Virus record (IMG/VR): IMGVR_UViG_3300044453_000128
Span: 1 to 46,457 of that record
Strand: one strand, 5' to 3'
DNA from: a virus
Lineage: Duplodnaviria; Caudoviricetes
DNA length: 46,457 nucleotides
Below, one piece after another: positions 2,895 to 46,034 of this stretch (positions are counted from its first letter, which is position 1; each line of letters opens with the position of its first letter). Both the position numbers and the translations under genes were made by a program. The notes beneath the pieces were generated by a model. It searched no databases and was not told the origin of the DNA. It saw only the letters and a list, made by a program, of their open reading frames with translations.

Positions 2895-3001
2895 AATTAT
2901 CAGCAACACTGGATATTTCATGATTTACAAAGAAAGGCTGAAATGGGAGGATCTTAAGTTATGATAGGTGCTCTAACCAGGTGGTTCATGTTCGGTGTCG
3001 T

Positions 3002-3214
3002 TATGTTTTGGCTGACCCGAGCAAAAGCACCTTTGACATACCTATTGATGCAATTGTGGTTGTGCAAACACCAGACAACTCTGCCTACTGCAAGCGATTC
3101 AGCGGCATGAAAGACGGCAGCCTTTTTTTAACAAGCGTGAACCAGGGCGTGGGAAGTGTCATCGTCGATGCCGAAGGCTGTCGGGTCATGCAAGTCGTGG
3201 GAGTGCTTTTTTGA
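3002..3214 (+). pseudogene. Diverged copy of the cI 3' end (last 70 codons)
   Basis: Colinear with 2031-2243; 59/70 aa identical by hand alignment, with many synonymous changes; no HTH and no catalytic Ser. Confidence 0.9.
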
Positions 3215-3217
3215 ATC

Positions 3218-4498
3218 ATGTATAAAGTAATTTGCAATAAGCCAATATATTTTGATAGGATACGAGCAGAGACGTTTATTGCTGAAAAATACAACGCTTT
3301 GGATGTTATTGAACGGTTTGGCCTTTGGATCGAAAGTATCAATGGAGAGGTGCCTATCGTAAAGCATATGAATGAGCAGTTGGAAAAGATGAGCCAAGAA
3401 GAGCTGGAGGACTTCTGCAAGAACAATTACTTTATTGAATATAGCGATGATGAGGCCGAGGTTGAACTGCCATATGTATTATTCGATGCTTTGGATGTGA
3501 ATAAGATTGGCTTTTTTGTCAAAAAGACAGACGACGGTGTCTGTGTGGCGGCCACTCGTGAAGCGCTTAATTATTCTGATGGATCATTCCGAATTGAAGG
3601 AGTAATTCAAATAGAGGGTACTTTAAGAAGCCTTTTCATAAAAACCTGGGATGATTGTTTTGAGATCAATTCAGACGGTGTAACTTCTCAGTTGCTGGGT
3701 GATCTTGGCACCGGTTCTACCGATGAACCAAAATCAACAGCTTCAGGCCATCCCGGTTCCTATTTTGCGACGATGGTTGCAACAGAAAGATTCATTAAAG
3801 ATTTGTTGCAAATAGAAAAGGAAACCTTAGGGAAAAATCCAGCAGACCTCCTAACTTCTGACCTCGACTTTGAGAATTACGGCAAGCGCCTGACTTCTAT
3901 CTTTATGGGTACCCGTGAAATACTGGATAAAGCTGATGAGGGTGATCCGTCGCTAATGCCGGCAAGAATCTGTGGGTTGGCTGCGATTCGCCTTTCTTTT
4001 ATGATGGCGGGACTCCAGCTAAAAACAGAGGGGCAACCTGGAACAAGTTGGTCAGAGCAAAATGATCTATTATATGAATACAGGCATTTGATGAATCTGC
4101 TAGAGAAGTCGTGGAACAATAAAAATAAACTAAACGAAAACGATATCCAAGTTTTAAATGAAATGGTAGATAAAACCACGGCTCAACTAAAGGGTGATTT
4201 AAATAAAAATGTTGCTGTAATCAGCTTTAAGCCTTACTTCTTTTCCGGTATTATTGCAATGGCAACATGTAACCTGCTTTTTATGCAGGAAAGTAAAAGC
4301 CGAGGGTATTCCGACCTAACGTGGGATAATTTTGGTTTTTTGGGTGCTGCGTTCTTTACCATGCCTCCCTTCTTAATAACGGTAGCCATGTGTCGTTTTG
4401 CATTTGATCACCGAGAAGGTTTATCGTGGCACTTTTTGTCATGTTATCTTGGCGTAATTGTGGCTCTTTTCGTGAATCAATTTGCACTGGGGATATGA
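3218..4498 (+). CDS. Hypothetical protein with about 3 C-terminal TM helices (cargo B)
   Basis: 426-aa ORF starting 3 nt after the stop of the cI-tail copy; hydrophobic C-terminus; AT-rich. Confidence 0.75.
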   Translation: MYKVICNKPIYFDRIRAETFIAEKYNALDVIERFGLWIESINGEVPIVKHMNEQLEKMSQEELEDFCKNNYFIEYSDDEAEVELPYVLFDALDVNKIGFFVKKTDDGVCVAATREALNYSDGSFRIEGVIQIEGTLRSLFIKTWDDCFEINSDGVTSQLLGDLGTGSTDEPKSTASGHPGSYFATMVATERFIKDLLQIEKETLGKNPADLLTSDLDFENYGKRLTSIFMGTREILDKADEGDPSLMPARICGLAAIRLSFMMAGLQLKTEGQPGTSWSEQNDLLYEYRHLMNLLEKSWNNKNKLNENDIQVLNEMVDKTTAQLKGDLNKNVAVISFKPYFFSGIIAMATCNLLFMQESKSRGYSDLTWDNFGFLGAAFFTMPPFLITVAMCRFAFDHREGLSWHFLSCYLGVIVALFVNQFALGI

Positions 4499-4675: not shown

Positions 4676-5082
4676 TGGATATATTCGTTAAATCACTTCG
4701 CTACATAATATTTGCCCCTGTGGCGATTGCTGTTGGGTTTATATTAGAACGACTTTTCTTTCTATGGTCTATGAGTGCTATCTATGGCACCGGCCAACCG
4801 TCATATGGGTTTTATGCTTTCCCTACTGCAATCGTGGCAGCTTTGTTTGGCTCAACCGTTATTATTCTGCTCGCAGCCAAGATCGCACCAGCAAATAAGC
4901 ATTATGCAATAATAATAGCGGGCTCTATTCATTTAGCTTTACTCCTTGCTGCTTTCTCTGTTGGAATTCATATTCAAGAAGGGGTAATGTACTTCATTGT
5001 TCTAGCGGCGAAGGTGATAGGCACTTTCCTAACTGCTGCAGCATTTTTTGTTAACTTTAATAATGACGGCACTTCGAAGTGA
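4675..5082 (+). CDS. Integral membrane protein, about 4 TM (cargo C)
   Basis: ATG 4675 is coupled to the repeat's stop; protein is almost wholly hydrophobic. Confidence 0.75.
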   Translation: MDIFVKSLRYIIFAPVAIAVGFILERLFFLWSMSAIYGTGQPSYGFYAFPTAIVAALFGSTVIILLAAKIAPANKHYAIIIAGSIHLALLLAAFSVGIHIQEGVMYFIVLAAKVIGTFLTAAAFFVNFNNDGTSK

Positions 5083-5104
5083 TTTGATTGATGAGGAACA
5101 CTCA

Positions 5105-5659
5105 ATGGCAAGCGGATTATTTCAGCTTCTTTCTCTATTGCTTTTTCTTCTGTTTGCATCGCTTATTGCGTATGTAACGCTCAATAGCGTTGAGGTTTCA
5201 TCAAGCAGAACAATGGCCGATGTCTACCCATATGCTCGTTTAATTGTTGCGAACTTTGGATTTGCTGTGGTCTGTGGATTATTGTATGGATATAGGTATT
5301 TTTCTAATTTGTCTTCAAAGTCCGAGGGTTTTCATGACGGGAAACGAGGCGATGTGAGGTATTGCGCAAGCCCAGTAGGATTCATGGATGTGTTCTATTT
5401 CTTGCATTTTTCGGTCGCAATGAACTTCATTCTATTTCCAGCACCTTTGCTTGAGGGTCTGAGTTTAGAACATTTTCGGGATGTAATTCTCCCCTTGATT
5501 GCAGGCGTAATAGTATTAACGGTTCCATGGTTCCTTCACTCAGCTAATTATCCATACCCATCAAGCTATGTCGGCTGGGAGTCATTTAAGTGCAACCTTT
5601 GGTCATTAGCGATATTCGTGGTGTTTAAATTGTTTTTTGGTTTTATCTTTGGTTGGTAG
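5105..5659 (+). CDS. Integral membrane protein, about 5 TM (cargo D)
   Basis: GAGGA upstream of ATG 5105; multiple hydrophobic segments. Confidence 0.7.
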   Translation: MASGLFQLLSLLLFLLFASLIAYVTLNSVEVSSSRTMADVYPYARLIVANFGFAVVCGLLYGYRYFSNLSSKSEGFHDGKRGDVRYCASPVGFMDVFYFLHFSVAMNFILFPAPLLEGLSLEHFRDVILPLIAGVIVLTVPWFLHSANYPYPSSYVGWESFKCNLWSLAIFVVFKLFFGFIFGW

Positions 5660-5665
5660 TGTCCC

Positions 5666-7222
5666 GTGAAAGCCAAAGTCTCCACTCCAAGTCCCTGGAT
5701 AATCTACTGTCGTGTCTCCACTGAGGATCAGGCCCAAGGTGGCGTTAGCCTCGATGCACAGCTAAGCGCCTGTCGTGCCTGGGCAACGCTGAAGGGAGTT
5801 GAGGTTGCAGAGGAGATAATCGACGCGGGGCAATCTGCGAAGACTCTCAAGCGACCAGGAATGCAACGCCTGCTCAAGATGATTGAGGACGGCACCGTTG
5901 CTGGTGTTATCGCATGGCGACTTGACCGGTTAACGCGCTCGATTCGAGACTTGGTGACGCTGCTTGACTTATTGGGTCAATCTCGGGGTCTAGTGAGTGC
6001 AAGCGAACAACTCGACACAACGAGTGCAATGGGGCGCTTTGTCGTGCATATGCTTGGGGCCATCGCGCAGTGGGAGCGTGAGACCATTGGCGATCGAACG
6101 CGCATGGCTCGTCAGCACATCCAATCCCTTGGCTACTTTGCCGGTGGTAAGATTCCACCTGGCTTGGCCATCGAAAACGAGGGAGAACGCAAGCGGCTCA
6201 TTCGTGGGGAATATGCAGAGATATTAGAACGCATGTGGCCAATGGTTCTTGATGGCGACTCCATGGGAGACATTGCACGAGCGATGGAAGCTGCCGGCGT
6301 GCCGGGAAAATGGCCAACCGTGCGAGTTAACAATCTGCTAAAGTCACGACAGTACATCGGCCTGCTCGTTGATGAGTCAACGTACGAATCAGTGATCGCA
6401 CACCTCAAAACCAAGCAGAATCCTCAACGAAGGAAGGCAGCCGTGAAGATTGAACGATCACCAAAGCGCGAGTCGCCACTGAAGGGCTTGGTGCGCTGCC
6501 CAACATGCGGAAAGGCTATGGTGCAAGTAACGGCCAAAGGGCGCTCCGAGACCTACAATTACTTTCGTTGTACCGATAAAGCTAAGCAGATTTGCAGCCA
6601 AAAGGATATTCGATGCGAGAATGTCGAGGAACGGATCATAGGCGCCATATCTGAGGCGATCACGGGTGGGGCATACTTGGATGCCCTCGAGAAGGAGTTA
6701 GCGCCTCTGCGTGGCGCAGGGGCCAAGTACCAAGAAGAACTAACGGCATTGCTCTCCGAGAAAGAGCAACTTGCGGCACGTATCCGTGATTTGAGCCTCC
6801 ATGGTCCGCGGCCGGGAAGCGAAGCCTGGAAAATGTCGACAACCCCACTCTTTGAGCGAGCTGATGAACTTGGCCTGGAGATTGCGCGCTGCGAAGGATC
6901 GATTGCTGCGATTGGAATAGACAAGCAAGGCACTGAATGGGCGATGGAGGTCATCACGGATGCACTTGAACGACTCAAAAGGCCCGAGGTTATTGAGGAT
7001 CAAACAACCCTCCTTGAACATCAAAAGCAGGTTTTTTCCAGCATAATCAAGCAAGTGACCCCTGGCGGCAAAGAGGTTATTCTAGAGTTGTTTCTGCCCG
7101 AAAATGCAATCACCCCCGCCGGTGGCGAGGGTGAAGCAAAGACTTCTGGTTCGTTTAGAAGTCAAATTTGGCTCGGCGGAGTTAGTGGAAAACGAACCGT
7201 TTTGGTTCGAGTTGCAAGATAG
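5666..7222 (+). CDS. int: Large serine recombinase (phage integrase)
   Basis: IYCRVSTEDQ catalytic motif, RPGM and RLDRLTR motifs, recombinase domain, zinc ribbon (CPTCG...YFRC...C) and coiled coil. Confidence 0.95.
   Translation: MKAKVSTPSPWIIYCRVSTEDQAQGGVSLDAQLSACRAWATLKGVEVAEEIIDAGQSAKTLKRPGMQRLLKMIEDGTVAGVIAWRLDRLTRSIRDLVTLLDLLGQSRGLVSASEQLDTTSAMGRFVVHMLGAIAQWERETIGDRTRMARQHIQSLGYFAGGKIPPGLAIENEGERKRLIRGEYAEILERMWPMVLDGDSMGDIARAMEAAGVPGKWPTVRVNNLLKSRQYIGLLVDESTYESVIAHLKTKQNPQRRKAAVKIERSPKRESPLKGLVRCPTCGKAMVQVTAKGRSETYNYFRCTDKAKQICSQKDIRCENVEERIIGAISEAITGGAYLDALEKELAPLRGAGAKYQEELTALLSEKEQLAARIRDLSLHGPRPGSEAWKMSTTPLFERADELGLEIARCEGSIAAIGIDKQGTEWAMEVITDALERLKRPEVIEDQTTLLEHQKQVFSSIIKQVTPGGKEVILELFLPENAITPAGGEGEAKTSGSFRSQIWLGGVSGKRTVLVRVAR
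7148..7198. other. Candidate attP inside the integrase 3' end
   Basis: Inverted repeat GGTTCGTTT (7148-7156) / AAACGAACC (7190-7198) spanning 51 bp around TGGCTC, the reverse complement of a tRNA-like 3' end GAGCCA. Confidence 0.6.
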
Positions 7223-7262: not shown

Positions 7263-7685
7263 ATCAATAATATTCAGCACGCGAAACGAATCATTACTTG
7301 ATAAGCTATCGGACATGAAATCCAACGACCAACATTCATTGGGTGCAACCGGCACCGTGAGCGGGATTGGATTGCGATTTGGCAATCATTTCTTTGGTTT
7401 GATCCGTAAGTTCAGCTCCAGTTTCTTATAGACGCGATACACGCGTTTATGGTTCCAGGTGTAGCCTTGGTTGCGTATCCAAGCGTACATCAGTCCAAAT
7501 CCCCAACGAACGTGGGTCGCTGCCAGACGCAGTAACACGTCCTCAAGATTGCTATCCTTCCCAGTGTCGGGCACATGCCGATAACAGCCTTCGCTAATGG
7601 TAAACAGCCTGCAAGAGCGTCGTGCAGCAATCTTTCGATCAGCTACAGTAGCCTGGGCCAGCTCGCGACGCTCACCAGGCTTCAC
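7263..7685 (-). pseudogene. IS3 transposase OrfB, nonsense-interrupted and truncated
   Basis: WNHKRVYRVY motif; in-frame TGA at 7386-7388; frame continues PNECWSLDFMSD...RVLNIID and then breaks off. Confidence 0.88.
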
Positions 7686-7948
7686 AACTTTTTTTCGATC
7701 ACCTCCCGCAGGATGTCGCAGTCCATTTGGCTATCAGCATACATCTTCTTCAATCGTTGGTTTTCAGCTTCCAGCTCTTTCATTCGCTTGATCAGCGAAG
7801 CGTCCATACCGCCAAATTTCGAGCGCCATTTGTAAAATGAGGCTTGGCTCACGCTATGCTTCCGGCAGACATCAGCAACGCTGACACCGCCTTCGGCTTC
7901 CTTTAAAATGGCACAAATCTGTGATTCGGTAAAACGGCTTTTCTTCAT
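7682..7948 (-). CDS. IS3 transposase OrfA
   Basis: MKKSRFTESQI...FYKWRSKFGGM...ELEAENQRLKK signature. Confidence 0.95.
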   Translation of the reverse strand: MKKSRFTESQICAILKEAEGGVSVADVCRKHSVSQASFYKWRSKFGGMDASLIKRMKELEAENQRLKKMYADSQMDCDILREVIEKKL

Positions 7949-35098: not shown

Positions 35099-35379
35099 AG
35101 GTCTTCAGCCTTTTTTACGGCAGCAAACCGCTTGTCGCTCTGAATCAACGCTGCAACCAATTCATCCGGGTTCTTCGCACGATCAATGATCTGCATATCC
35201 TGCGGGTGAAAGTTCCGCGCCCCGTTCTCGTCGATAAACACAATTGCGCCGCACTTATTCACGGTAGGCGACATGCTTGGTAGCAATTTATCGTGCTTTT
35301 CAGCGTCATAGATCGCACTGGCACACCCTTGGTAATGCCAGTTGATGATTCGCTGTTTTCGTTCTGGATTAAACGCCAT
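35095..35379 (-). CDS. Hypothetical protein
   Basis: AAGGAG RBS; overlaps terS and terL. Confidence 0.55.
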   Translation of the reverse strand: MAFNPERKQRIINWHYQGCASAIYDAEKHDKLLPSMSPTVNKCGAIVFIDENGARNFHPQDMQIIDRAKNPDELVAALIQSDKRFAAVKKAEDL

Positions 35380-36001
35380 TCGTCTCTCCTTGCGCAATTC
35401 TCACGGCATTCTGCCAGTCTAATGGATCGCCAACTCTTGCCGGTGCCTCGATAACTTTGGCGCTGTCCTGGCCCTTCTGCTTCGCGTCTCGCTCGGCCTC
35501 GGCCTCTTTGCGCAGCGTCACATGCAGGTCGGCCAGGTGCTTTGCCGCCTTGGTTCGTTCATTCAGGTTTGACGGCACCTCGATCGCCATGCCATCGCAG
35601 ACCGTGATGTCTTTCACTTGGCCGCGCATTACCTTGGTCAGGTAATCGCCAACCTCATTCAGGTCGGCCACCCTCCCGGCTGCTGCCTGGTTGACCTCAC
35701 GAATCTCGCTATTGATCTGGTTTTGCTCTTCACGTAGCGCCTGCCTTCGCGCTGTTTCGATCGCTGCTTCCACGTCGGCCGCCACCAGTTTCAGCACAGC
35801 GGCCATTCTCGGCTTATTGACCGCGTTCACCAATGCGGGACGTGTTACTCCCTGTTCTTCCGCGACCTCTTTCAGCGCATGTGCATTCGTCGGCCATCCC
35901 GCTCGGATCAACAGCGTGATGCGATGGCGCTGTCCCTGCGTCAGTTTTTGCATCTCCGCAATTGTAGGGGGTGTTAGCGGGCCATCGCTCATTTCCCCCA
36001 T
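35369..36001 (-). CDS. terS: Terminase small subunit
   Basis: VADLNEVGDYLTKVMRGQ...ERTKAAKHL pattern; lies upstream of terL; start 36001 or 35992. Confidence 0.75.
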   Translation of the reverse strand: MGEMSDGPLTPPTIAEMQKLTQGQRHRITLLIRAGWPTNAHALKEVAEEQGVTRPALVNAVNKPRMAAVLKLVAADVEAAIETARRQALREEQNQINSEIREVNQAAAGRVADLNEVGDYLTKVMRGQVKDITVCDGMAIEVPSNLNERTKAAKHLADLHVTLRKEAEAERDAKQKGQDSAKVIEAPARVGDPLDWQNAVRIAQGETNGV

Positions 36002-36066
36002 ATACACAAGGGTTCGTGAATTGGCAAGCCTCCTTGAAACCCCTGAAACCCCCACTCAAACCCCAC

Positions 36067-36093
36067 AAAAAACCCCGCCACATTGACGGGGTT
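36067..36093 (-). terminator. Intrinsic terminator closing the early operon / cassette array
   Basis: Minus strand reads AACCCCGTCAATGTGGCGGGGTTTTTT. Confidence 0.8.
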
Positions 36094-36106
36094 AGCGAGG
36101 CTGCAC

Positions 36107-36151
36107 CTACAACCTGGGTTAGCGAGGTGTCTCGCTAAACAAGTGTTGGGC
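36107..36151 (+). other. attC-like site 1 (short, 45 bp, atypical)
   Basis: CTACAAC-N5-TTAGCGAG-gtgt-CTCGCTAA-N6-GTTGGGC. Confidence 0.55.
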
Positions 36152-36450
36152 GTCAATATTTACTAAGAAGTTCGCCGGTTTATTCCGAATCAACTTGTAA
36201 TTGGTTTCCCGATATTCGACTCCCTACTTCATTGGGCTAAATCCTGGCTTCCCACCTTTAAATCTTGGCCATCAACTTGCTCATCAACCGCCCATTACCT
36301 GACCACTCATCAACATTTGGTGACTCGTACCCAGGGCTGACTGGCTAAAATTGATTGCAAACCGTAGGACGCAGCCGAAGGTAGACGGATACTTCGAAAT
36401 TGCGGATCATTGGCACATCCATCCGGTGGTTCCAAACGCATTCAAGCTAC

Positions 36451-36622
36451 GCCCAACACGGGTTTACAGAAAACGGGAGCCCCTAGCGATGCTTTGTAAC
36501 TTGGATACGCAATCTTCAAACCATCGGTATGTGGGTCGCCTTCGGCGCCATTATCCACATGCCTATCTTCCAATCAGCCTGACACAGACCGTGTCGGGGC
36601 CCCCTGAAACTGAACGTTGGGC
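36451..36622 (+). other. attC site 2 (172 bp)
   Basis: GCCCAAC...GTTGGGC core sites; L boxes GTTTACAG / CTGAAAC; colinear homologue of site 3. Confidence 0.8.
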
Positions 36623-36654
36623 AACCAAACTAAACCGATATAGAAAGATTCAAG

Positions 36655-37008
36655 ATGAAGAAAGCAATAAAATACTACTTGATAGGAACATCCATCTTCT
36701 TCCATGCGATCATATTAATATCCTTGTTCTGGATTATTCCATTCTTCAATAATGCCTCTACTGCTGGAAAATCATGGGCAGAATCCGCCATGAATCCCGA
36801 CAAAGGTATTATCGAAGACGTTTCAACCCTGGAACAAGATGGCCTAAAGTATCAAGGGTATAAAATAAACTATAACGACAGAACACTGTATACGATGGGA
36901 ACTGGAAATGATGAATTTGAAATTGGACAAACCGTGAATGTAATGGTAAATGCTCACCCCTACGGACCTTTAAAAACATTAATGGTAACAATTACTCCAG
37001 AACGGTAG
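36655..37008 (+). CDS. Cassette gene: membrane-anchored small OB-like protein
   Basis: AT-rich; N-terminal TM; starts 32 nt after GTTGGGC and its TAG overlaps the GCCCAAC of the next attC, which is classic cassette layout. Confidence 0.75.
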   Translation: MKKAIKYYLIGTSIFFHAIILISLFWIIPFFNNASTAGKSWAESAMNPDKGIIEDVSTLEQDGLKYQGYKINYNDRTLYTMGTGNDEFEIGQTVNVMVNAHPYGPLKTLMVTITPER

Positions 37009-37179
37009 CCCAACAAAGTGTTCAAGAAAACGGGAGCCACTAGCGATGTTTTCCAACTCAAGCCTTTTTAACTACAGTGCCCCGGTGGCCGTGCCGCCTA
37101 CGGCGCCATTATCCGTCCACCTGCTCGCGATCAAACTTGTAAAGTTTGCCTCGTGGCCCCCTTAACGTTGACGTTGGGT
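37008..37179 (+). other. attC site 3 (172 bp)
   Basis: GCCCAAC...GTTGGGT core sites; L boxes GTTCAAG / CTTAAC; compensatory stem change relative to site 2. Confidence 0.82.
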
Positions 37180-37182
37180 TCG

Positions 37183-37482
37183 TTATTCGGTTGATCCATC
37201 ACAGTCTATTGCATGAAGGATCGACCTAGCAAGCAATCGCGCAGCCCTGTGATCTAAGTTGACCAATGATACTGGCATGAATGAATCGACAACATTCTCG
37301 TTCCATTGTTCAAGTTGAATTTGAATGCAATTATTATCGGCATTAGTGACATTTAGATATGCCTCTCCGTAATCATCATCCGGTTCAATCCGATATTTTC
37401 GTAAACCTGCTGCTAATGGTTCTTTGGCCTGCATGTATATTGGGGACATGCAGGATATTCTGACTTGCATGTAGTGTTCCAT
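37183..37482 (-). CDS. Cassette gene, hypothetical 99 aa (inverted relative to attC)
   Basis: GGAAGGA RBS then ATG 37482; fills the space between attC3 and attC4. Confidence 0.65.
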   Translation of the reverse strand: MEHYMQVRISCMSPIYMQAKEPLAAGLRKYRIEPDDDYGEAYLNVTNADNNCIQIQLEQWNENVVDSFMPVSLVNLDHRAARLLARSILHAIDCDGSTE

Positions 37483-37506
37483 ATTTTCGTTCCTTCCGTT
37501 AATTCC

Positions 37507-37566
37507 ACCCAACAACCGGATCAAGTCAGGCGAGCGCAGAGCGCCGCCTAATCCGTTAGGTTGGGT
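37507..37566 (+). other. attC site 4 (60 bp)
   Basis: ACCCAAC...GGATCAAG...GGCGAGCGC-aga-GCGCCGCC-TAATCC...GTTGGGT. Confidence 0.82.
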
Positions 37567-38396
37567 TACTGTAATAAATGGTATGCAACGGCTGCCTGAA
37601 GTGGCACCCATGCGTCTCCTAGTGATTCGATGCGCTTGCTCCGATCGGCCATCCCATCCACCACTCGCAAAAGTCCGGGCTCAATCGGATTCCAACTGTA
37701 TGCTTGGCAGTATCGCGCAGCGGCTTCGATCGCTTTGCCGCCTGCTTCCGATAACCCTCCGCGCTGTATGGCGATTTGTAATCCGTCGCGCAAAGCGTTG
37801 GCAGAAGCTGGCGTAATTTTCCCGACAGTCGCAGTATTTTCTTCCCTCGACTGGTCGAATAGGCAATGGTTCGGCAATCCGCTGCTAGCAAGGTCGGCAT
37901 ACAAGAACCATCTGTCTCTTCGGTGGGGGGCTTCAACATCAGACGCGGCAATGATTCCGTCTCTTGGTCGGTAGCCTCGATTGCGAAGGTCTGCCAATAC
38001 AACATCTCGCCCTTTGGTTTTGATTCTGGGGCTGTTTTCAAAGAAAATCCAGGATGGTCGAAAAGCGTCGATTGCCTGGATGCATCCTCTGTAAGTCGGG
38101 CCTGTCTCTCTTCCGCCAAGGCCCGCTCCTTCGCCTGCTGCGCTAATATCTTTACAAGAAAAACCTGCTGCGATTCCGTCCACTTTTTCATGGACTGCGG
38201 CATGCCACTCTGTACTGGCAATGTCTCCGCATACGACGGTAAGGTGTGGCCACCAGCCTGCCTTGGCTTCGCTTGCCACAGCACGACAACGCCACTCGTC
38301 GGCATCGAGGGCGAACACTGATTTCCATCCAAGGATTTCGCCGGTCCACAAGGAACCGCCTCGTCCTGAGCAAAGGTGCATGACATTCTGTTTCAC
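37566..38396 (-). CDS. C5-cytosine DNA methyltransferase, alpha polypeptide (cassette gene)
   Basis: Motif I HLCSGRGG, IV GFSCKDIS, VI FFENSP, VIII APHRRDRWF, X SLGDAWVP; probable GTG start 38396; stop abuts attC4. Confidence 0.85.
   Translation of the reverse strand: MKQNVMHLCSGRGGSLWTGEILGWKSVFALDADEWRCRAVASEAKAGWWPHLTVVCGDIASTEWHAAVHEKVDGIAAGFSCKDISAAGEGAGLGGRETGPTYRGCIQAIDAFRPSWIFFENSPRIKTKGRDVVLADLRNRGYRPRDGIIAASDVEAPHRRDRWFLYADLASSGLPNHCLFDQSREENTATVGKITPASANALRDGLQIAIQRGGLSEAGGKAIEAAARYCQAYSWNPIEPGLLRVVDGMADRSKRIESLGDAWVPLQAAVAYHLLQ
37619..37900 (-). CDS. Putative methyltransferase beta polypeptide in an overlapping frame
   Basis: Alternative frame encodes LLPTLCATDYK and RLSPDFCEWWMGWP (motif IX-like), which the main frame lacks; start uncertain (frame open to 38386). 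Confidence 0.65.
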   Translation of the reverse strand: MPTLLAADCRTIAYSTSRGKKILRLSGKLRQLLPTLCATDYKSPYSAEGYRKQAAKRSKPLRDTAKHTVGIRLSPDFCEWWMGWPIGASASNH

Positions 38397-38419
38397 TCCG
38401 TTTCCTTCGTTAAATCGTA

Positions 38420-38480
38420 ACCCAACAACGCCGTTCAACTGGGAGCGCCTAGCGGCGCCCCGTTACCGTTGAGGTTGGGT
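38420..38480 (+). other. attC site 5 (61 bp)
   Basis: ACCCAAC...GTTCAAC-TGGGAGCGCC-tagc-GGCGCCCC-GTTACC...GTTGGGT. Confidence 0.82.
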
Positions 38481-38517
38481 TACTTGGTTGCCCGGTCTGC
38501 GCATTTGGTGCAATACT

Positions 38518-38631
38518 CTAATCCATCTCAGATGGCTGAACTTTAATCGGCCTGCGCGTTTGAGTCTTGCGGCCGTCCAAAATAGCGCGGACCATTTCGG
38601 CGTTAAATAAAATCGGTTTCTCGTTTGGCAT
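38518..38631 (-). pseudogene. Truncated conserved phage protein (ASCH/PUA-like N-terminus)
   Basis: [30 protein letters not shown] matches a widespread phage N-terminal motif, but the frame stops after 37 aa next to attC5. Confidence 0.75.
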
Positions 38632-40814: not shown

Positions 40815-41435
40815 TTAGTTGCTAAAAAATGACGAGAATTTTTCACCGCCGTATTGATCCGTGGTCATCGCAATCATTTCTGCAATCGTCGCCTTTTTGT
40901 CGGTGGTGAATCCCTTGGACTCAACAAAGCCGCGAACGCCGGCTGCGCATGCGCCGGTAATAGACCGATAGCATTCAACGGCTTCTTCGAAGCTAAATTG
41001 ATGACTCAACTCAAGACCCTTATATCTTTCCGTTGAGCGATCTGATATTTTATAAATCAAATCCTTCTTGGCTTCATCAAGCGTATCACCGTGTGCCCAC
41101 TTAGATCCGTCCGTGACGGCATATTGAATTTTAGTTTTTCCGATATTCCGAGTTCTGTAGACGCCGCCTTTGTGATCGACGACCTCCGAGAATATCCCAT
41201 CGATAAGGATGTATTTACCGTTTTGCCAGCTCAGTGGATATTTCGGTTCATCAATGTGCTCTGGCTCCTCAATCTGCGTGCCGCGCAGGTCGAGATAGCC
41301 GCCAACCGTGAGACCGTCAGGCAATGCGGTGATCTGCGTGCCGCGCAGGTCGAGAGGGCCGCCAACCGTGAGACCGTCAGGGCCATCTGTGTATTCGATT
41401 TCGTATTTTTTTAGAAATTCAATTAAATTAGTCAT
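40815..41435 (-). CDS. Phage protein with short LRR-like repeats
   Basis: PDGLTVGGxLDLRGTQI x2; C-terminal AHGDTL.EA..DL..K...YR.ITGAC..G motif. Confidence 0.75.
   Translation of the reverse strand: MTNLIEFLKKYEIEYTDGPDGLTVGGPLDLRGTQITALPDGLTVGGYLDLRGTQIEEPEHIDEPKYPLSWQNGKYILIDGIFSEVVDHKGGVYRTRNIGKTKIQYAVTDGSKWAHGDTLDEAKKDLIYKISDRSTERYKGLELSHQFSFEEAVECYRSITGACAAGVRGFVESKGFTTDKKATIAEMIAMTTDQYGGEKFSSFFSN
41272..41381. repeat. 60-bp-period tandem repeat (about 1.8 copies)
   Basis: 41272-41321 and 41332-41381 differ at 2 nt. Confidence 0.9.
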
Positions 41436-42457: not shown

Positions 42458-43324
42458 TTAATCCTTGACGTCGTAGTTTTTATCAAGCCACTGAGTCGCT
42501 TGGCTCAGGTAAATCGGACCGTCTCCACGAGTTGGGTCTTTGAGCAATGAATCGTACATGTCGCAAAGCGCTCCCCATCCGTCCGAGGTGTTTCCCTCGT
42601 AGCGTCGAAACAAAGCCTCCCAGTGACGGTCCTCGTCCCGGCCAACGAAGATCCGTGGATGGGTCATCCTGAAGTCTGGCCAGTTTCTTTTTCGCTGATC
42701 AAAGTCCGGTGGTGTTTCGTTTTCACTGAAAGGATCAAAAGATCCTTGAGTGGGTGTGGGTGGGTGAACTTTTTCGCCCGTAGAGCGGGCACCCGCACGC
42801 TCTATATGATTCTGACTCTGATTCTGATTGGTTGCTGTTTCGTTGGAACGCAAAGGCAACGCCCGTTCAACACCCGTTGCTGTTTCGTTGGAACGCAAAG
42901 GCAACGCCCGTTCAACACCCGTTGCTGTTTCGTTGGAACGCAAAGGCAACGCCCGTTCAACACCCGTTGCTGTTTCGTTGGATTTTTTCTGTTTTTTGCG
43001 GTTACGCCGTGCTTCAGCCGATGCTTTGCCAGCTTTAATGGCACTTTGGTATTTCCTAGCAACATCGTCCAAATCACGATTGATCCGCTCATGTTGCCAG
43101 TGTGTTGGGGTTACGTTGAAGAAGCGTTGCAACTTGATTTCAACGGTTGTCCAACGGTCGTTGGCCAGTCGTGTAATCATTTGCAGGTCTTCCGTTGGAA
43201 GGGGTCCTCCATTCTTCCAATAGGCTAACATTAAGAGAAAGTAAGCCCCATGCTCTTCGGTGTTTAAGTGCATAGTGTCGGCCAGGTAATCGCCTGGATA
43301 GAATGGCATGTAAGCGATGCCCAT
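42458..43324 (-). CDS. Replication initiator (YdaU/DUF1376-like)
   Basis: YMPFYPGDYLADTMHL..EEHGAY.LL...YW signature; internal tandem repeats. Confidence 0.85.
   Translation of the reverse strand: MGIAYMPFYPGDYLADTMHLNTEEHGAYFLLMLAYWKNGGPLPTEDLQMITRLANDRWTTVEIKLQRFFNVTPTHWQHERINRDLDDVARKYQSAIKAGKASAEARRNRKKQKKSNETATGVERALPLRSNETATGVERALPLRSNETATGVERALPLRSNETATNQNQSQNHIERAGARSTGEKVHPPTPTQGSFDPFSENETPPDFDQRKRNWPDFRMTHPRIFVGRDEDRHWEALFRRYEGNTSDGWGALCDMYDSLLKDPTRGDGPIYLSQATQWLDKNYDVKD
42831..42982. repeat. 45-bp perfect tandem repeats x3.4, candidate iterons / origin
   Basis: GTTGCTGTTTCGTTGGAACGCAAAGGCAACGCCCGTTCAACACCC at 42831, 42876 and 42921, partial at 42966. Confidence 0.9.
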
Positions 43325-44239: not shown

Positions 44240-45378
44240 TGAGACCGACCTTTCCCGGCCTTAGTAAGGCTCATGGCCTTCGGCACCGATTTAAGAGCAT
44301 CACGGGGAACATCGACGCCAAGGCTGCCCAAGTCCTTGAATCCCTTGGTGGCTGCCATGCGAATAACTGCTGGCATGATCTCTGGACGCTCTTTAACTGC
44401 AGCCTCAAGCGCATTGACCAGCGCATCTTCGTCAGCAACGCTCGTCACAGAGCCATTGCCTTGCAACTTATACCCGGCCACTTCGTTGCCCGCTTCTGCG
44501 TGTGCTTTGGTGAGTTTCTTGGTGCCATTCGCAAACTTTTCAGCAACCTTGCCGGCAGTGGCTAATTCGCCCCACTCTTCCGGGCTTGATGGTGCGCCAA
44601 ACGCTTCTTGTAGCTGCATGTGTTTCTCCTGATATTCTTGGCGAACATGACAGAAAGGCGCTGCTCGACAGAAAAAGCAGGCGTCGCCGGGGATTAATTG
44701 AAGGTCTTCACTCAAAGCCGCGAACACACATGCCGCTAAATGAATGCGCATGCTTTTGAATTGGTCGCGGGTGTAGGTGATGTAAGCCAGGCGCTCGCTG
44801 ACTTCGTTGAATGGCTGAACGCATGCAACGGTGATCTTGTCGGCTTCGTAGTGATCGCTTGCCATGACGGCGTAACAATCGAATTGCTCATTAAAGCCAG
44901 GCGCATCCACTTCAACGCGGCCGAACTTCCAATCGAAAAGAAAGGCGTGCGTTTCTTCGGACACAAAAACAATCACTAAATCGGGCGTGCCGCCGCGCTC
45001 GATGCCTATTGCGGTACCTTCTAATTTTTCCTCGGTGAAGATCCAATGCTCGGCGCATCGTTTAATTTGCGGCGTCACCAATTCAAGCACATGCTCCAAG
45101 CAACAGCGGCAGCAATACGCATCATAACCGCTCGACAAATTATTAATTATTTCAAAGGCTGCATCAGGATCGGCGATAAAATCGACCTCCTTGCAAACCT
45201 TTTCCATGACCCCGTGCAATTCGGTGCCGCGTTCGGCCTCCGGGCTCTCTTCGTTGAGGGGGATCAGTTTTCGCAAGATTGCTTCGGCCGTCATCATTAA
45301 TGACCCAGGGCATCCGGTGACTTGTTTCATGGATGAGGGGCGCGTCAATTCGCGGACAAGTTCAGCGTGGGCAGTCAT
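44236..45378 (-). CDS. PD-(D/E)XK exonuclease (DUF2800 / Cas4-like)
   Basis: PSS...CPGS, GTELH, GTPD, DWKFG, Q...YA and C.FC.A...C motifs; adjacent to ERF. Confidence 0.85.
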   Translation of the reverse strand: MTAHAELVRELTRPSSMKQVTGCPGSLMMTAEAILRKLIPLNEESPEAERGTELHGVMEKVCKEVDFIADPDAAFEIINNLSSGYDAYCCRCCLEHVLELVTPQIKRCAEHWIFTEEKLEGTAIGIERGGTPDLVIVFVSEETHAFLFDWKFGRVEVDAPGFNEQFDCYAVMASDHYEADKITVACVQPFNEVSERLAYITYTRDQFKSMRIHLAACVFAALSEDLQLIPGDACFFCRAAPFCHVRQEYQEKHMQLQEAFGAPSSPEEWGELATAGKVAEKFANGTKKLTKAHAEAGNEVAGYKLQGNGSVTSVADEDALVNALEAAVKERPEIMPAVIRMAATKGFKDLGSLGVDVPRDALKSVPKAMSLTKAGKGRSQ

Positions 45379-46034
45379 GCTTTCACCACTGCTTTCACGG
45401 CAGCAATAAAGGCCGACCGCTTTTCGTCTGCGATGTTGTGCCAGTCTGGGATTTCTTTTTTACCAAACTCGAGGCCGTATTCACGGCAGAGCGAAAGATA
45501 TTTTTCCTTGTCTTGCTTATAAAGCGCCTGGGCAAATTGGTTATCTGTCTCTGGTGGCTTAGTGGAATTATTCTTTTTGGCCGCTTGTTGGCTCGCCTGG
45601 CGCTTGGCGTTCTCAAAGTTATCACGGCCTGATGTGGGGGCGCTTGCCTCGCCGTCGTCTTCATCGCCGGCTGCAATGCCACACAAAGAAGACAAGGTGT
45701 ATCGCTTGGCGTAGGTGATTTCGCTTCCGACATGCTGAGCGCTGAAACTCTTTGGCGTTAATGACAGCGATGTCTCATACCATTGACCGCTACTGTGAGA
45801 TAGGCGAGTATAAACCGTGACACTTTTGCTTTCAAAGTCGGTATCTGTGCCCTGGATGAATGAAATGCCGCTTGAACTCAATGGGCCTTGAATTGCTTTA
45901 ATAACCGAATTGAGCGTGGCGTAACGGCTGCGCAGGTGTGGGTTGACCCCATCTAACTCTGCGGAACCCATTTGCGCCTGGGCCTTTGCAAGCGCCGCGG
46001 CGATCTCATTTGTCTCTGGTGATGTGGTAAGCAT
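45375..46034 (-). CDS. erf: ERF-family single-strand annealing protein
   Basis: AALAKAQ...NPHLRSRYATL...GSEITYAKRYTLSSLCGIA..EDDG. Confidence 0.92.
   Translation of the reverse strand: MLTTSPETNEIAAALAKAQAQMGSAELDGVNPHLRSRYATLNSVIKAIQGPLSSSGISFIQGTDTDFESKSVTVYTRLSHSSGQWYETSLSLTPKSFSAQHVGSEITYAKRYTLSSLCGIAAGDEDDGEASAPTSGRDNFENAKRQASQQAAKKNNSTKPPETDNQFAQALYKQDKEKYLSLCREYGLEFGKKEIPDWHNIADEKRSAFIAAVKAVVKA

Follow-up and report, generated by a model that had tools for sequence, protein, structure and literature searches.

An attC cassette array with an attI-like head in a temperate phage that encodes no integron integrase

The window analysed here is the whole IMG/VR virus record IMGVR_UViG_3300044453_000128, 46,457 bases of a tailed phage (Duplodnaviria; Caudoviricetes). 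Between positions 36089 and 38480 it carries an integron-type array in a genome that encodes no tyrosine recombinase. We consider it probable that the array consists of an attI-like entry site and four attC-bounded cassettes, that its alternative forms are joined in the core of the entry site, and that the recombination is likely carried out by an integron integrase which the host provides in trans. The array occurs in four states in contigs of public sequencing runs, and attC sites of the same family are found elsewhere in these runs.

Anatomy and alternative states of the array

A sequence-only reading of the window had described five imperfect palindromes, beginning at 36107, 36451, 37008, 37507 and 38420, as attC sites that delimit four units. 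All five are located at these positions. Sites 2–5 have the anatomy of attC sites; the first has an imperfect inverse core, failed the strict scan and is treated separately below. The home-made scanner used for this combines three features of attC sites: the pairing of the cores, L boxes that contain a single extrahelical base, and the folding of the bottom strand. It returned four strict matches in the window, which are sites 2–5, all in the array and all with the + strand as the top strand. In 200 dinucleotide-shuffled windows only four strict matches were obtained in total, or 0.02 per window. With four strict sites within 2.1 kb, the array has the two or more neighbouring attC sites expected of an attC cluster that lacks an integron integrase (CALIN).

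Site 2 (36451..36622, top strand +, bottom strand -) and site 3 (37008..37179, +) are 172-bp attC sites that belong to a single family, and their L boxes differ by compensatory changes; the extrahelical base on the bottom strand is a T in the former and a G in the latter. Site 4 (37507..37566, +) is a 60-bp attC with an imperfect L box and a weak covariance score of 11.5 bits, and site 5 (38420..38480, +) is a 61-bp attC with an extrahelical G on the bottom strand. The inverse core RYYYAAC and the core GTTRRRY of these four sites match the consensus at 8 of 8 positions, a test which site 1 fails. Of the seven core pairs in each site, six or seven have a pairing probability of 0.89 or higher. 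In the scan, the L boxes of sites 2, 3 and 5 pair at 6–7 of 7 positions with the extrahelical base on the arm opposite to the cleaved AAC; in the minimum-energy folds the register is shifted at sites 3–5. Folding of the bottom strands had been proposed as a check of the attC assignment, and the minus strands of sites 2–5 do fold lower than the plus strands (minus-strand z -3.0 to -6.2). Lower folding of the bottom strand is reported as the average behaviour of attC sites (PMC5027507).

The start of each unit had also been described as the exact reverse complement of the inverse core at its own end. The complementarity is indeed exact, over 9, 7, 7 and 10 nt in units 1–4, but only the 9 nt of unit 1 pair uniquely with their own start. 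Units 2–4 tie with other cores, and the inverse core of site 5 matches its own core over 10 nt as well.

As controls, the scanner found four attC sites in MH445380, within its class 1 integron region, and two in the first 2 kb of TJE1, and every time the top strand was the coding strand. It misses real attC sites, namely one published TJE1 site and most of the M16-3 sites. Because the same scanner sets the top strand on the coding strand in known integrons, the reversal of genes in the phage array described below is not a scanner error. Two covariance models were built without the window sequence: R1 from 6 published attC sites, and R2 from 24 sites, mostly of other viral contigs, some of which were reached through a pattern derived from the window. 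R2 scored site 5 with 22.9 bits (E 0.0014) and site 4 with E 0.76, both on the minus strand. A search of Rfam gave 0 matches.

Site 1 (36089..36151, +) has a different layout. It comprises two 12-bp direct repeats (36089-36100 and 36116-36127), an L-like box at 36133-36139, a 5-nt spacer and the core GTTGGGC at 36145-36151; attI1 of the class 1 integron in MH445380 likewise has an L box, a 5-nt spacer and upstream direct repeats. The core is thus accompanied by a degenerate L box five bases upstream and by no attC inverse core, as in attI, and a hairpin that can be read as an inverted attC is also present. In the palindrome of site 1 (36107-36151) the imperfect inverse core matches any core over 4 nt. 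Judged by this layout, site 1 looks like an attI-type site that marks where cassettes join and not like an ordinary attC. Its crossover was set at G36145|T36146 by the integron rule.

Variable cassette content at this locus had been predicted, as had recombination at G|TT. The stretch is wholly or partly contained in 13 public runs; seven of these hold at least half of its words and all seven are synthetic metagenomes. No RNA dataset is among the runs listed with the stretch. Seven different runs (X1, X3, X4, X5, X6, X7 and X8) were compared as Logan contigs. In X6, a 1405-base contig with a depth of 36.9 joins 36040-36144 to 37173-38472 (sides of 105 and 1300 bases) with no mismatch, so that cassettes 1 and 2 are absent. 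In X4, position 36144 is joined to 37560 at a depth of 10.1, with a short side of 24 bases plus 6 shared ones, and cassettes 1–3 are absent; the same run also contains the reference form of the array. In X5 a break in the phage contig lies at 36150. One of the sequences that follow it matches the start of an HNH cassette in a second viral contig, L189, at 28/30 positions, and its best match inside the window is 19/30. All three alternative joints are located inside the GTTGGG core of site 1 (36145). The attC-side joints at 37173 and 37560 are resolved to the 6 shared core bases and agree with recombination at G|TT. Together with the reference form, four states of the array are therefore seen, and four different cassettes follow the core of site 1 across the runs. 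The HNH case is the only one that cannot be an excision, and it is represented by one contig.

In X1, X4 and X3, cassettes 3 and 4 (37173-38479) reach up to about double the contig depth of their flanks, and the contigs break at the cores, which may point to a second copy or excised circles. In X4, a contig also breaks at 38485, where a cassette of the HNH type would diverge. The marine metagenome X8 holds three short exact pieces of the stretch, one of which spans site 5.

The absence of a tyrosine recombinase, already noted from the sequence, holds for the complete genome. CheckV rates the record 100% complete, and its first 100 bases are repeated at the end of the window. A six-frame search with PF00589 gave 0 matches in the phage genome, while 14/14 control genomes were positive. 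In a PHROGs scan of 51 open reading frames (ORFs), the recombinase-type matches are a serine integrase and pieces of transposases only. The large serine integrase (5666..7222, +; PF00239, PF07508 and PF13408; phrog_95) is the sole recombinase of its kind found and is not an integron integrase. As in CALINs, and unlike in complete integrons, no intI is located next to the array.

Related attC sites in a second phage and elsewhere in the runs

The contig L189 bears the same IMG/VR sample number as L002, one of the copies of the window phage. The two phages are unrelated: their terminase and portal are of different types, and the attC sites are the only DNA they have in common. The head site of L189 agrees with site 1 in its core-proximal sequence and in spacing, and the contig also holds two attC sites and genes that are reversed. 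The 10-base ends of the HNH cassette are those of cassette 4, and the first site of L189 scores 30.5 bits with a model of classical attC. PF00589 has no match in this record, which is 36% complete. Two small genes, the second Arc-like, adjoin the head site at 2973-3612 (+); from their layout they presumably form a toxin-antitoxin-like pair.

A terminase search gave 79 loci, which are two identical copies of the window phage and others at no more than 44% identity; attC sites were found in 0 of the 12 scanned among the 77 non-copies. The pattern of the head site hit 33 loci, with downstream attC sites only in the two copies and the L189 record (0/30 others). The short-attC pattern hit 25 loci and, with five from copies or the L189 record left out, attC sites were present in 0/20. 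With a generic pattern, several attC sites were found in 4 of 39 other loci (43 less 4 copies). Two of these four are the arrays of G004 (L247; 582-4257, 9 sites, record 92% complete) and G005 (L249; 288-2749, at least 7 sites), both without a PF00589 match. The small genes of both arrays lie opposite to the attC sites, and PHROGs confirmed the strand for 3/11 and 1/6 of the ORFs tested, respectively. A Mom-like DNA modification gene is included in these arrays, and reading frames extend into the attC arms. Elsewhere, two classical attC sites are located at a viral contig end (L198, 3708-4071).

Attachment sites of the 172-bp family had been expected outside the phage as well, and X1, X4, X5 and X6 contain many contigs that are 80–99% like sites 2 and 3. 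The summed depth at these two sites is 180–390, compared with 15–37 for unique phage DNA, and is not to be read as copy number. The contigs break at the exact site borders (36451, 37008, 36620-36622 and 37178) into other sequences, and some carry a start codon directly after the core or a stop codon directly ahead of the inverse core, the arrangement of forward cassettes. Other contigs hold relatives of cassette 1 with about 86% similarity that start exactly at 36145, one of them behind another attC arm. Given these sequences, the pool of 172-bp attC sites outside the phage is likely to be a chromosomal integron of the host, and cassettes 1 and 2 were likely acquired from it recently. In X1, X4 and X5 a contig runs from the end of a site-3-like attC (37178) to the start of another (37009), possibly a very short or empty cassette within the array outside the phage.

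The pattern of the 172-bp family gave two chance matches in GTDB genomes and 0 in JGI metagenomes. For the protein of cassette 2, no locus was found in metagenome contigs, and only the two phage copies were found among viral contigs. A search of plasmids with the single-stranded DNA-binding protein (SSB) gave nothing close.

Cassettes, flanks and genome setting

Cassette 1 (36146..36616, +, including site 2) is of the host type and has no clear ORF; it is either gene-less or holds a decayed gene. In a coding test, its best frame had at most 8 synonymous changes out of 16. Cassette 2 has a forward gene of 117 aa (36655..37008, +), the stop codon of which overlaps the inverse core. Its product has an N-terminal hydrophobic stretch, was assigned to no family and has two relatives at 57–60%; the gene has a GC content of 37%, compared with 52% for the genome. 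Cassette 3 has a gene of 99 aa (37183..37482, -), which is reversed relative to the attC sites, has its own ribosome-binding site and was assigned to no family. Atlas matches for cassettes 2 and 3 are all below 0.9.

Cassette 4 encodes a C5 cytosine methyltransferase (37566..38396, -; PF00145, E 7e-18; phrog_363). This gene is also reversed, and its stop codon lies partly in the core of site 4. The catalytic motif in the family of this enzyme reads SC in place of the usual PC. A second long frame (37619..38386, -) starts within 10 bases of the first and is open and conserved in L089, the closest relative of the methyltransferase (59% identity). By analogy, it is likely the beta chain of a two-chain enzyme such as M.EcoHK31I, a heterodimeric C5 methyltransferase with the second chain in another frame inside the main gene (PMC2836561); unlike in that system, no cognate restriction enzyme was recognised in the window phage. 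This methyltransferase is a member of a large family in phages; full-consensus attC sites were found at 0 of 79 other loci, and loose matches at 6. L089 itself has no attC. Repeated small glycine-rich (GYG/GDG) genes surround the methyltransferase relative there (2950-3830 and 4860-5180).

A single gene had been assigned to each coding unit. This does not apply to unit 4 with its two overlapping long frames, and the genes of units 3 and 4 are on the minus strand. These two are in line with the early operon, and the gene of cassette 2 is forward. Complete integrons have genes co-oriented with attC and a promoter at attI; here one cassette gene is forward, two are reversed and one cassette is without a clear gene. 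No consensus promoter was found on the + strand inside the array region. On the minus strand, a hairpin followed by a T-run (36071..36093) resembles an intrinsic terminator and would end leftward transcription of the early operon through the array. A consensus scan found 4 such structures where 2.9 are expected in shuffled sequence, so the hairpin is weak by itself.

The array is located at the end of the minus-strand early operon, directly ahead of the gene for the small terminase subunit (35369..36055, -; phrog_51, E 1e-4; start uncertain), which forms the fixed left flank. The fixed right flank (38480..38631, -; phrog_874) consists of the N-terminal 37 aa of an ASCH-like gene (38518-38631) and a short frame with a cysteine pair, whose stop codon is inside the core of site 5. 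The flank looks like an internal deletion that fused two genes. Among GenBank phages and plasmids, only the ASCH-like piece has matches.

The gene set is that of a temperate tailed phage, with a repressor, the serine integrase, portal, capsid, terminase, SSB, an Erf-like annealing protein (45375-46034) and an exonuclease in the PHROGs scan. Two small ORFs like transposase families adjoin the serine integrase (7386-7948, -). A tandem repeat of about 45 bases (42832-42983) inside a replication (primosomal) gene, probably origin iterons, yields loose matches in the attC scan, and a 60-base direct repeat is located near 41270-41380.

Enzyme, rival explanations and known systems

In integrons, IntI acts on the folded bottom strand of attC and recombines it with attI at G|TT, and the newest cassette comes to stand first. 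We propose that a host IntI would act in this way in trans, on the prophage or on the replicating phage. Cassettes would likely enter at site 1, and they would leave through recombination of site 1 or an attC with a later attC, using the folded minus strand. Cassettes 3 and 4 would be older, phage-type cargo read from the early transcript, and cassettes 1 and 2 recent host cassettes that are perhaps silent. Such silence would fit their absence in X4 and X6. As the array points against the early operon, reversed cassettes (3, 4 and HNH) would be read by the early transcript of the phage; this transcript would end at the terminator located right behind site 1, and an integron promoter would not be needed. 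Reversed cassettes could arise directly from phage genes or by inversion between two inverted cores. The use of a host integron integrase in trans as a gene-capture system, proposed in the sequence-only reading, is supported by the contigs of the public runs, which show the variable content, the sites outside the phage and the joints at G|TT that had been predicted; that reading held neither the role of site 1 as an attI-like entry, nor the two reversed cassettes, nor the phage attC clusters published earlier (PMC9892861).

Several observations weigh against this proposal. The evidence for the junctions consists of assembled contigs and not of raw reads, and in X4 and X5 it depends on about 30 bases of site 1. 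Joints of this kind occur in three of the seven runs compared, with none listed in X1, X3, X7 and X8. X4, X5 and X6 are filed as separate studies and are not marked as source of the window, but the synthetic communities may belong to one campaign. The contigs of X4 and X6 cannot separate gain of cassettes from loss. X1 and X3 contain an unexplained joint from 36360 to 38440 (side 20) that lies away from any core, and the array is identical in the two other IMG/VR copies. R1 matched only site 4 and site 1, both weakly (E 0.3 and 0.2), and R2 did not recover sites 2 and 3 at full length. The covariance check proposed earlier, made with these home-made models, came out well for site 5 and weakly for site 4 (E 0.3–0.8). 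Finally, neither a host genome nor an intI gene was found in the GTDB genomes or JGI metagenomes searched.

R1 also scored site 1 as an attC of opposite orientation (17 bits, E 0.18), and its hairpin folds better on the + strand, opposite to the strand of sites 2–5 (z -5.5). Small CALINs can moreover be seeded by attG sites (bioRxiv 2022.09.11.507474). Site 1 could accordingly be no selected attI but an inverted attC that recombines on its top strand, or a chance secondary site of the attG type that a host integrase uses repeatedly. We regard this as unlikely: the head site of L189 has the same core-proximal sequence and spacing and yet no R1 match, R2 does not match site 1, top-strand recombination is reported to be rarer by orders of magnitude (PMC5027507), and one core serves all three alternative joints.

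It is quite improbable, in our view, that the enzyme acting in trans is some other tyrosine recombinase, from either the host or a co-resident element, instead of a classical IntI. No intI was seen, which would agree with such an enzyme, but the classical cores, the extrahelical base placed as in IntI substrates and the scores of site 5 and of the first L189 site with the model of classical attC argue for IntI. Very little speaks for the array being an inert relic of ordinary recombination with variants that are microhomology deletions or assembly errors. Deletion cannot bring in the HNH cassette, the 6-base overlap in X6 is flanked by 105 and 1300 exact bases at high depth, and the same core is where the relatives of cassette 1 begin, there preceded by a different attC arm. 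These points outweigh the Erf-like protein of the phage, the 6 identical bases common to the cores and the illegitimate capture that Qi et al. raise as a possibility (PMC9892861).

If a host integrase does act on this array, it would be a shared tool for gene flow from host to phage and from phage to phage. The array is tied to an unrelated phage by one junction, which leads to a cassette of that phage, and to the likely host integron by two of its cassettes. More speculatively, the temperate phages of one host may keep their own attI sites and hold in common a phage-specific pool of reversed cassettes, which the host integrase moves between unrelated phages and in which phage early genes become cassettes; we offer this as a tentative idea that may well prove wrong. 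The methyltransferase, for which the nearest phage relative is not flanked by attC sites, would be an example of an early gene turned cassette. Integron cassettes would on this view be produced in phages, and this array would in addition take up chromosomal cassettes of the host. The reversed cassettes offer a concrete test case for how cassettes arise.

The literature consulted for comparison comprised PMC9892861, PMC8352920, PMC9176274, PMC5027507, PMC4889954, bioRxiv 2022.09.11.507474 and PMC2836561. Among the titles and abstract openings that make up most of the literature searched, with subscription journals outside it, no paper on phage arrays with reversed genes or on cassette turnover in a phage was found, although the bioRxiv supplements and the Dryad annotation of Qi et al. 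may show reversed cassettes. Clusters of attC sites without an integrase are already published for phages: Qi et al. (2023) report 17 CALINs in 10,705 phages, with five methyltransferase cassettes, and IntI1 recombined 5/6 of the phage attC sites tested (PMC9892861). The array described here shares with them at least two attC sites with cassettes, the lack of intI, the phage genome and a methyltransferase as cargo, and it differs in its attI-like head and its alternative states in sequencing runs. For the published clusters, function was demonstrated only with cloned sites and a foreign integrase, and the accessible part of that report mentions neither turnover in place nor exchange between phages. 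What the present analysis adds is direct evidence from junctions and a connection with a second phage. Since public samples contain four states of the array, a phage array that lacks an integrase can function as a gene-capture device. Host integrons are reported to store anti-phage genes, and phages that use the same enzyme for methyltransferases would be the counterpart.

Among the published cases, TJE1 has genes and attC sites on the same strand, whereas two cassettes are reversed here, and the Shewanella prophage M16-3 has an attI-headed CALIN but also carries intI (PMC9892861). With the insertions at attG sites and the single attC sites lacking an integron integrase (SALINs) of bioRxiv 2022.09.11.507474, the array has in common that cassettes stand outside an integron and the integrase is encoded elsewhere; it differs in the repeated use of a single site and in that a similar site is found at the head of the array of a second phage. 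With integrons in general it shares the core GTTRRRY, attC sites folded from the bottom strand and joints at the core. It differs from them in the lack of intI and of a consensus promoter on the + strand, and its expression would come from the far end. The array works like an integron, and it is to be filed as a CALIN with an attI-like head and not as a complete integron.

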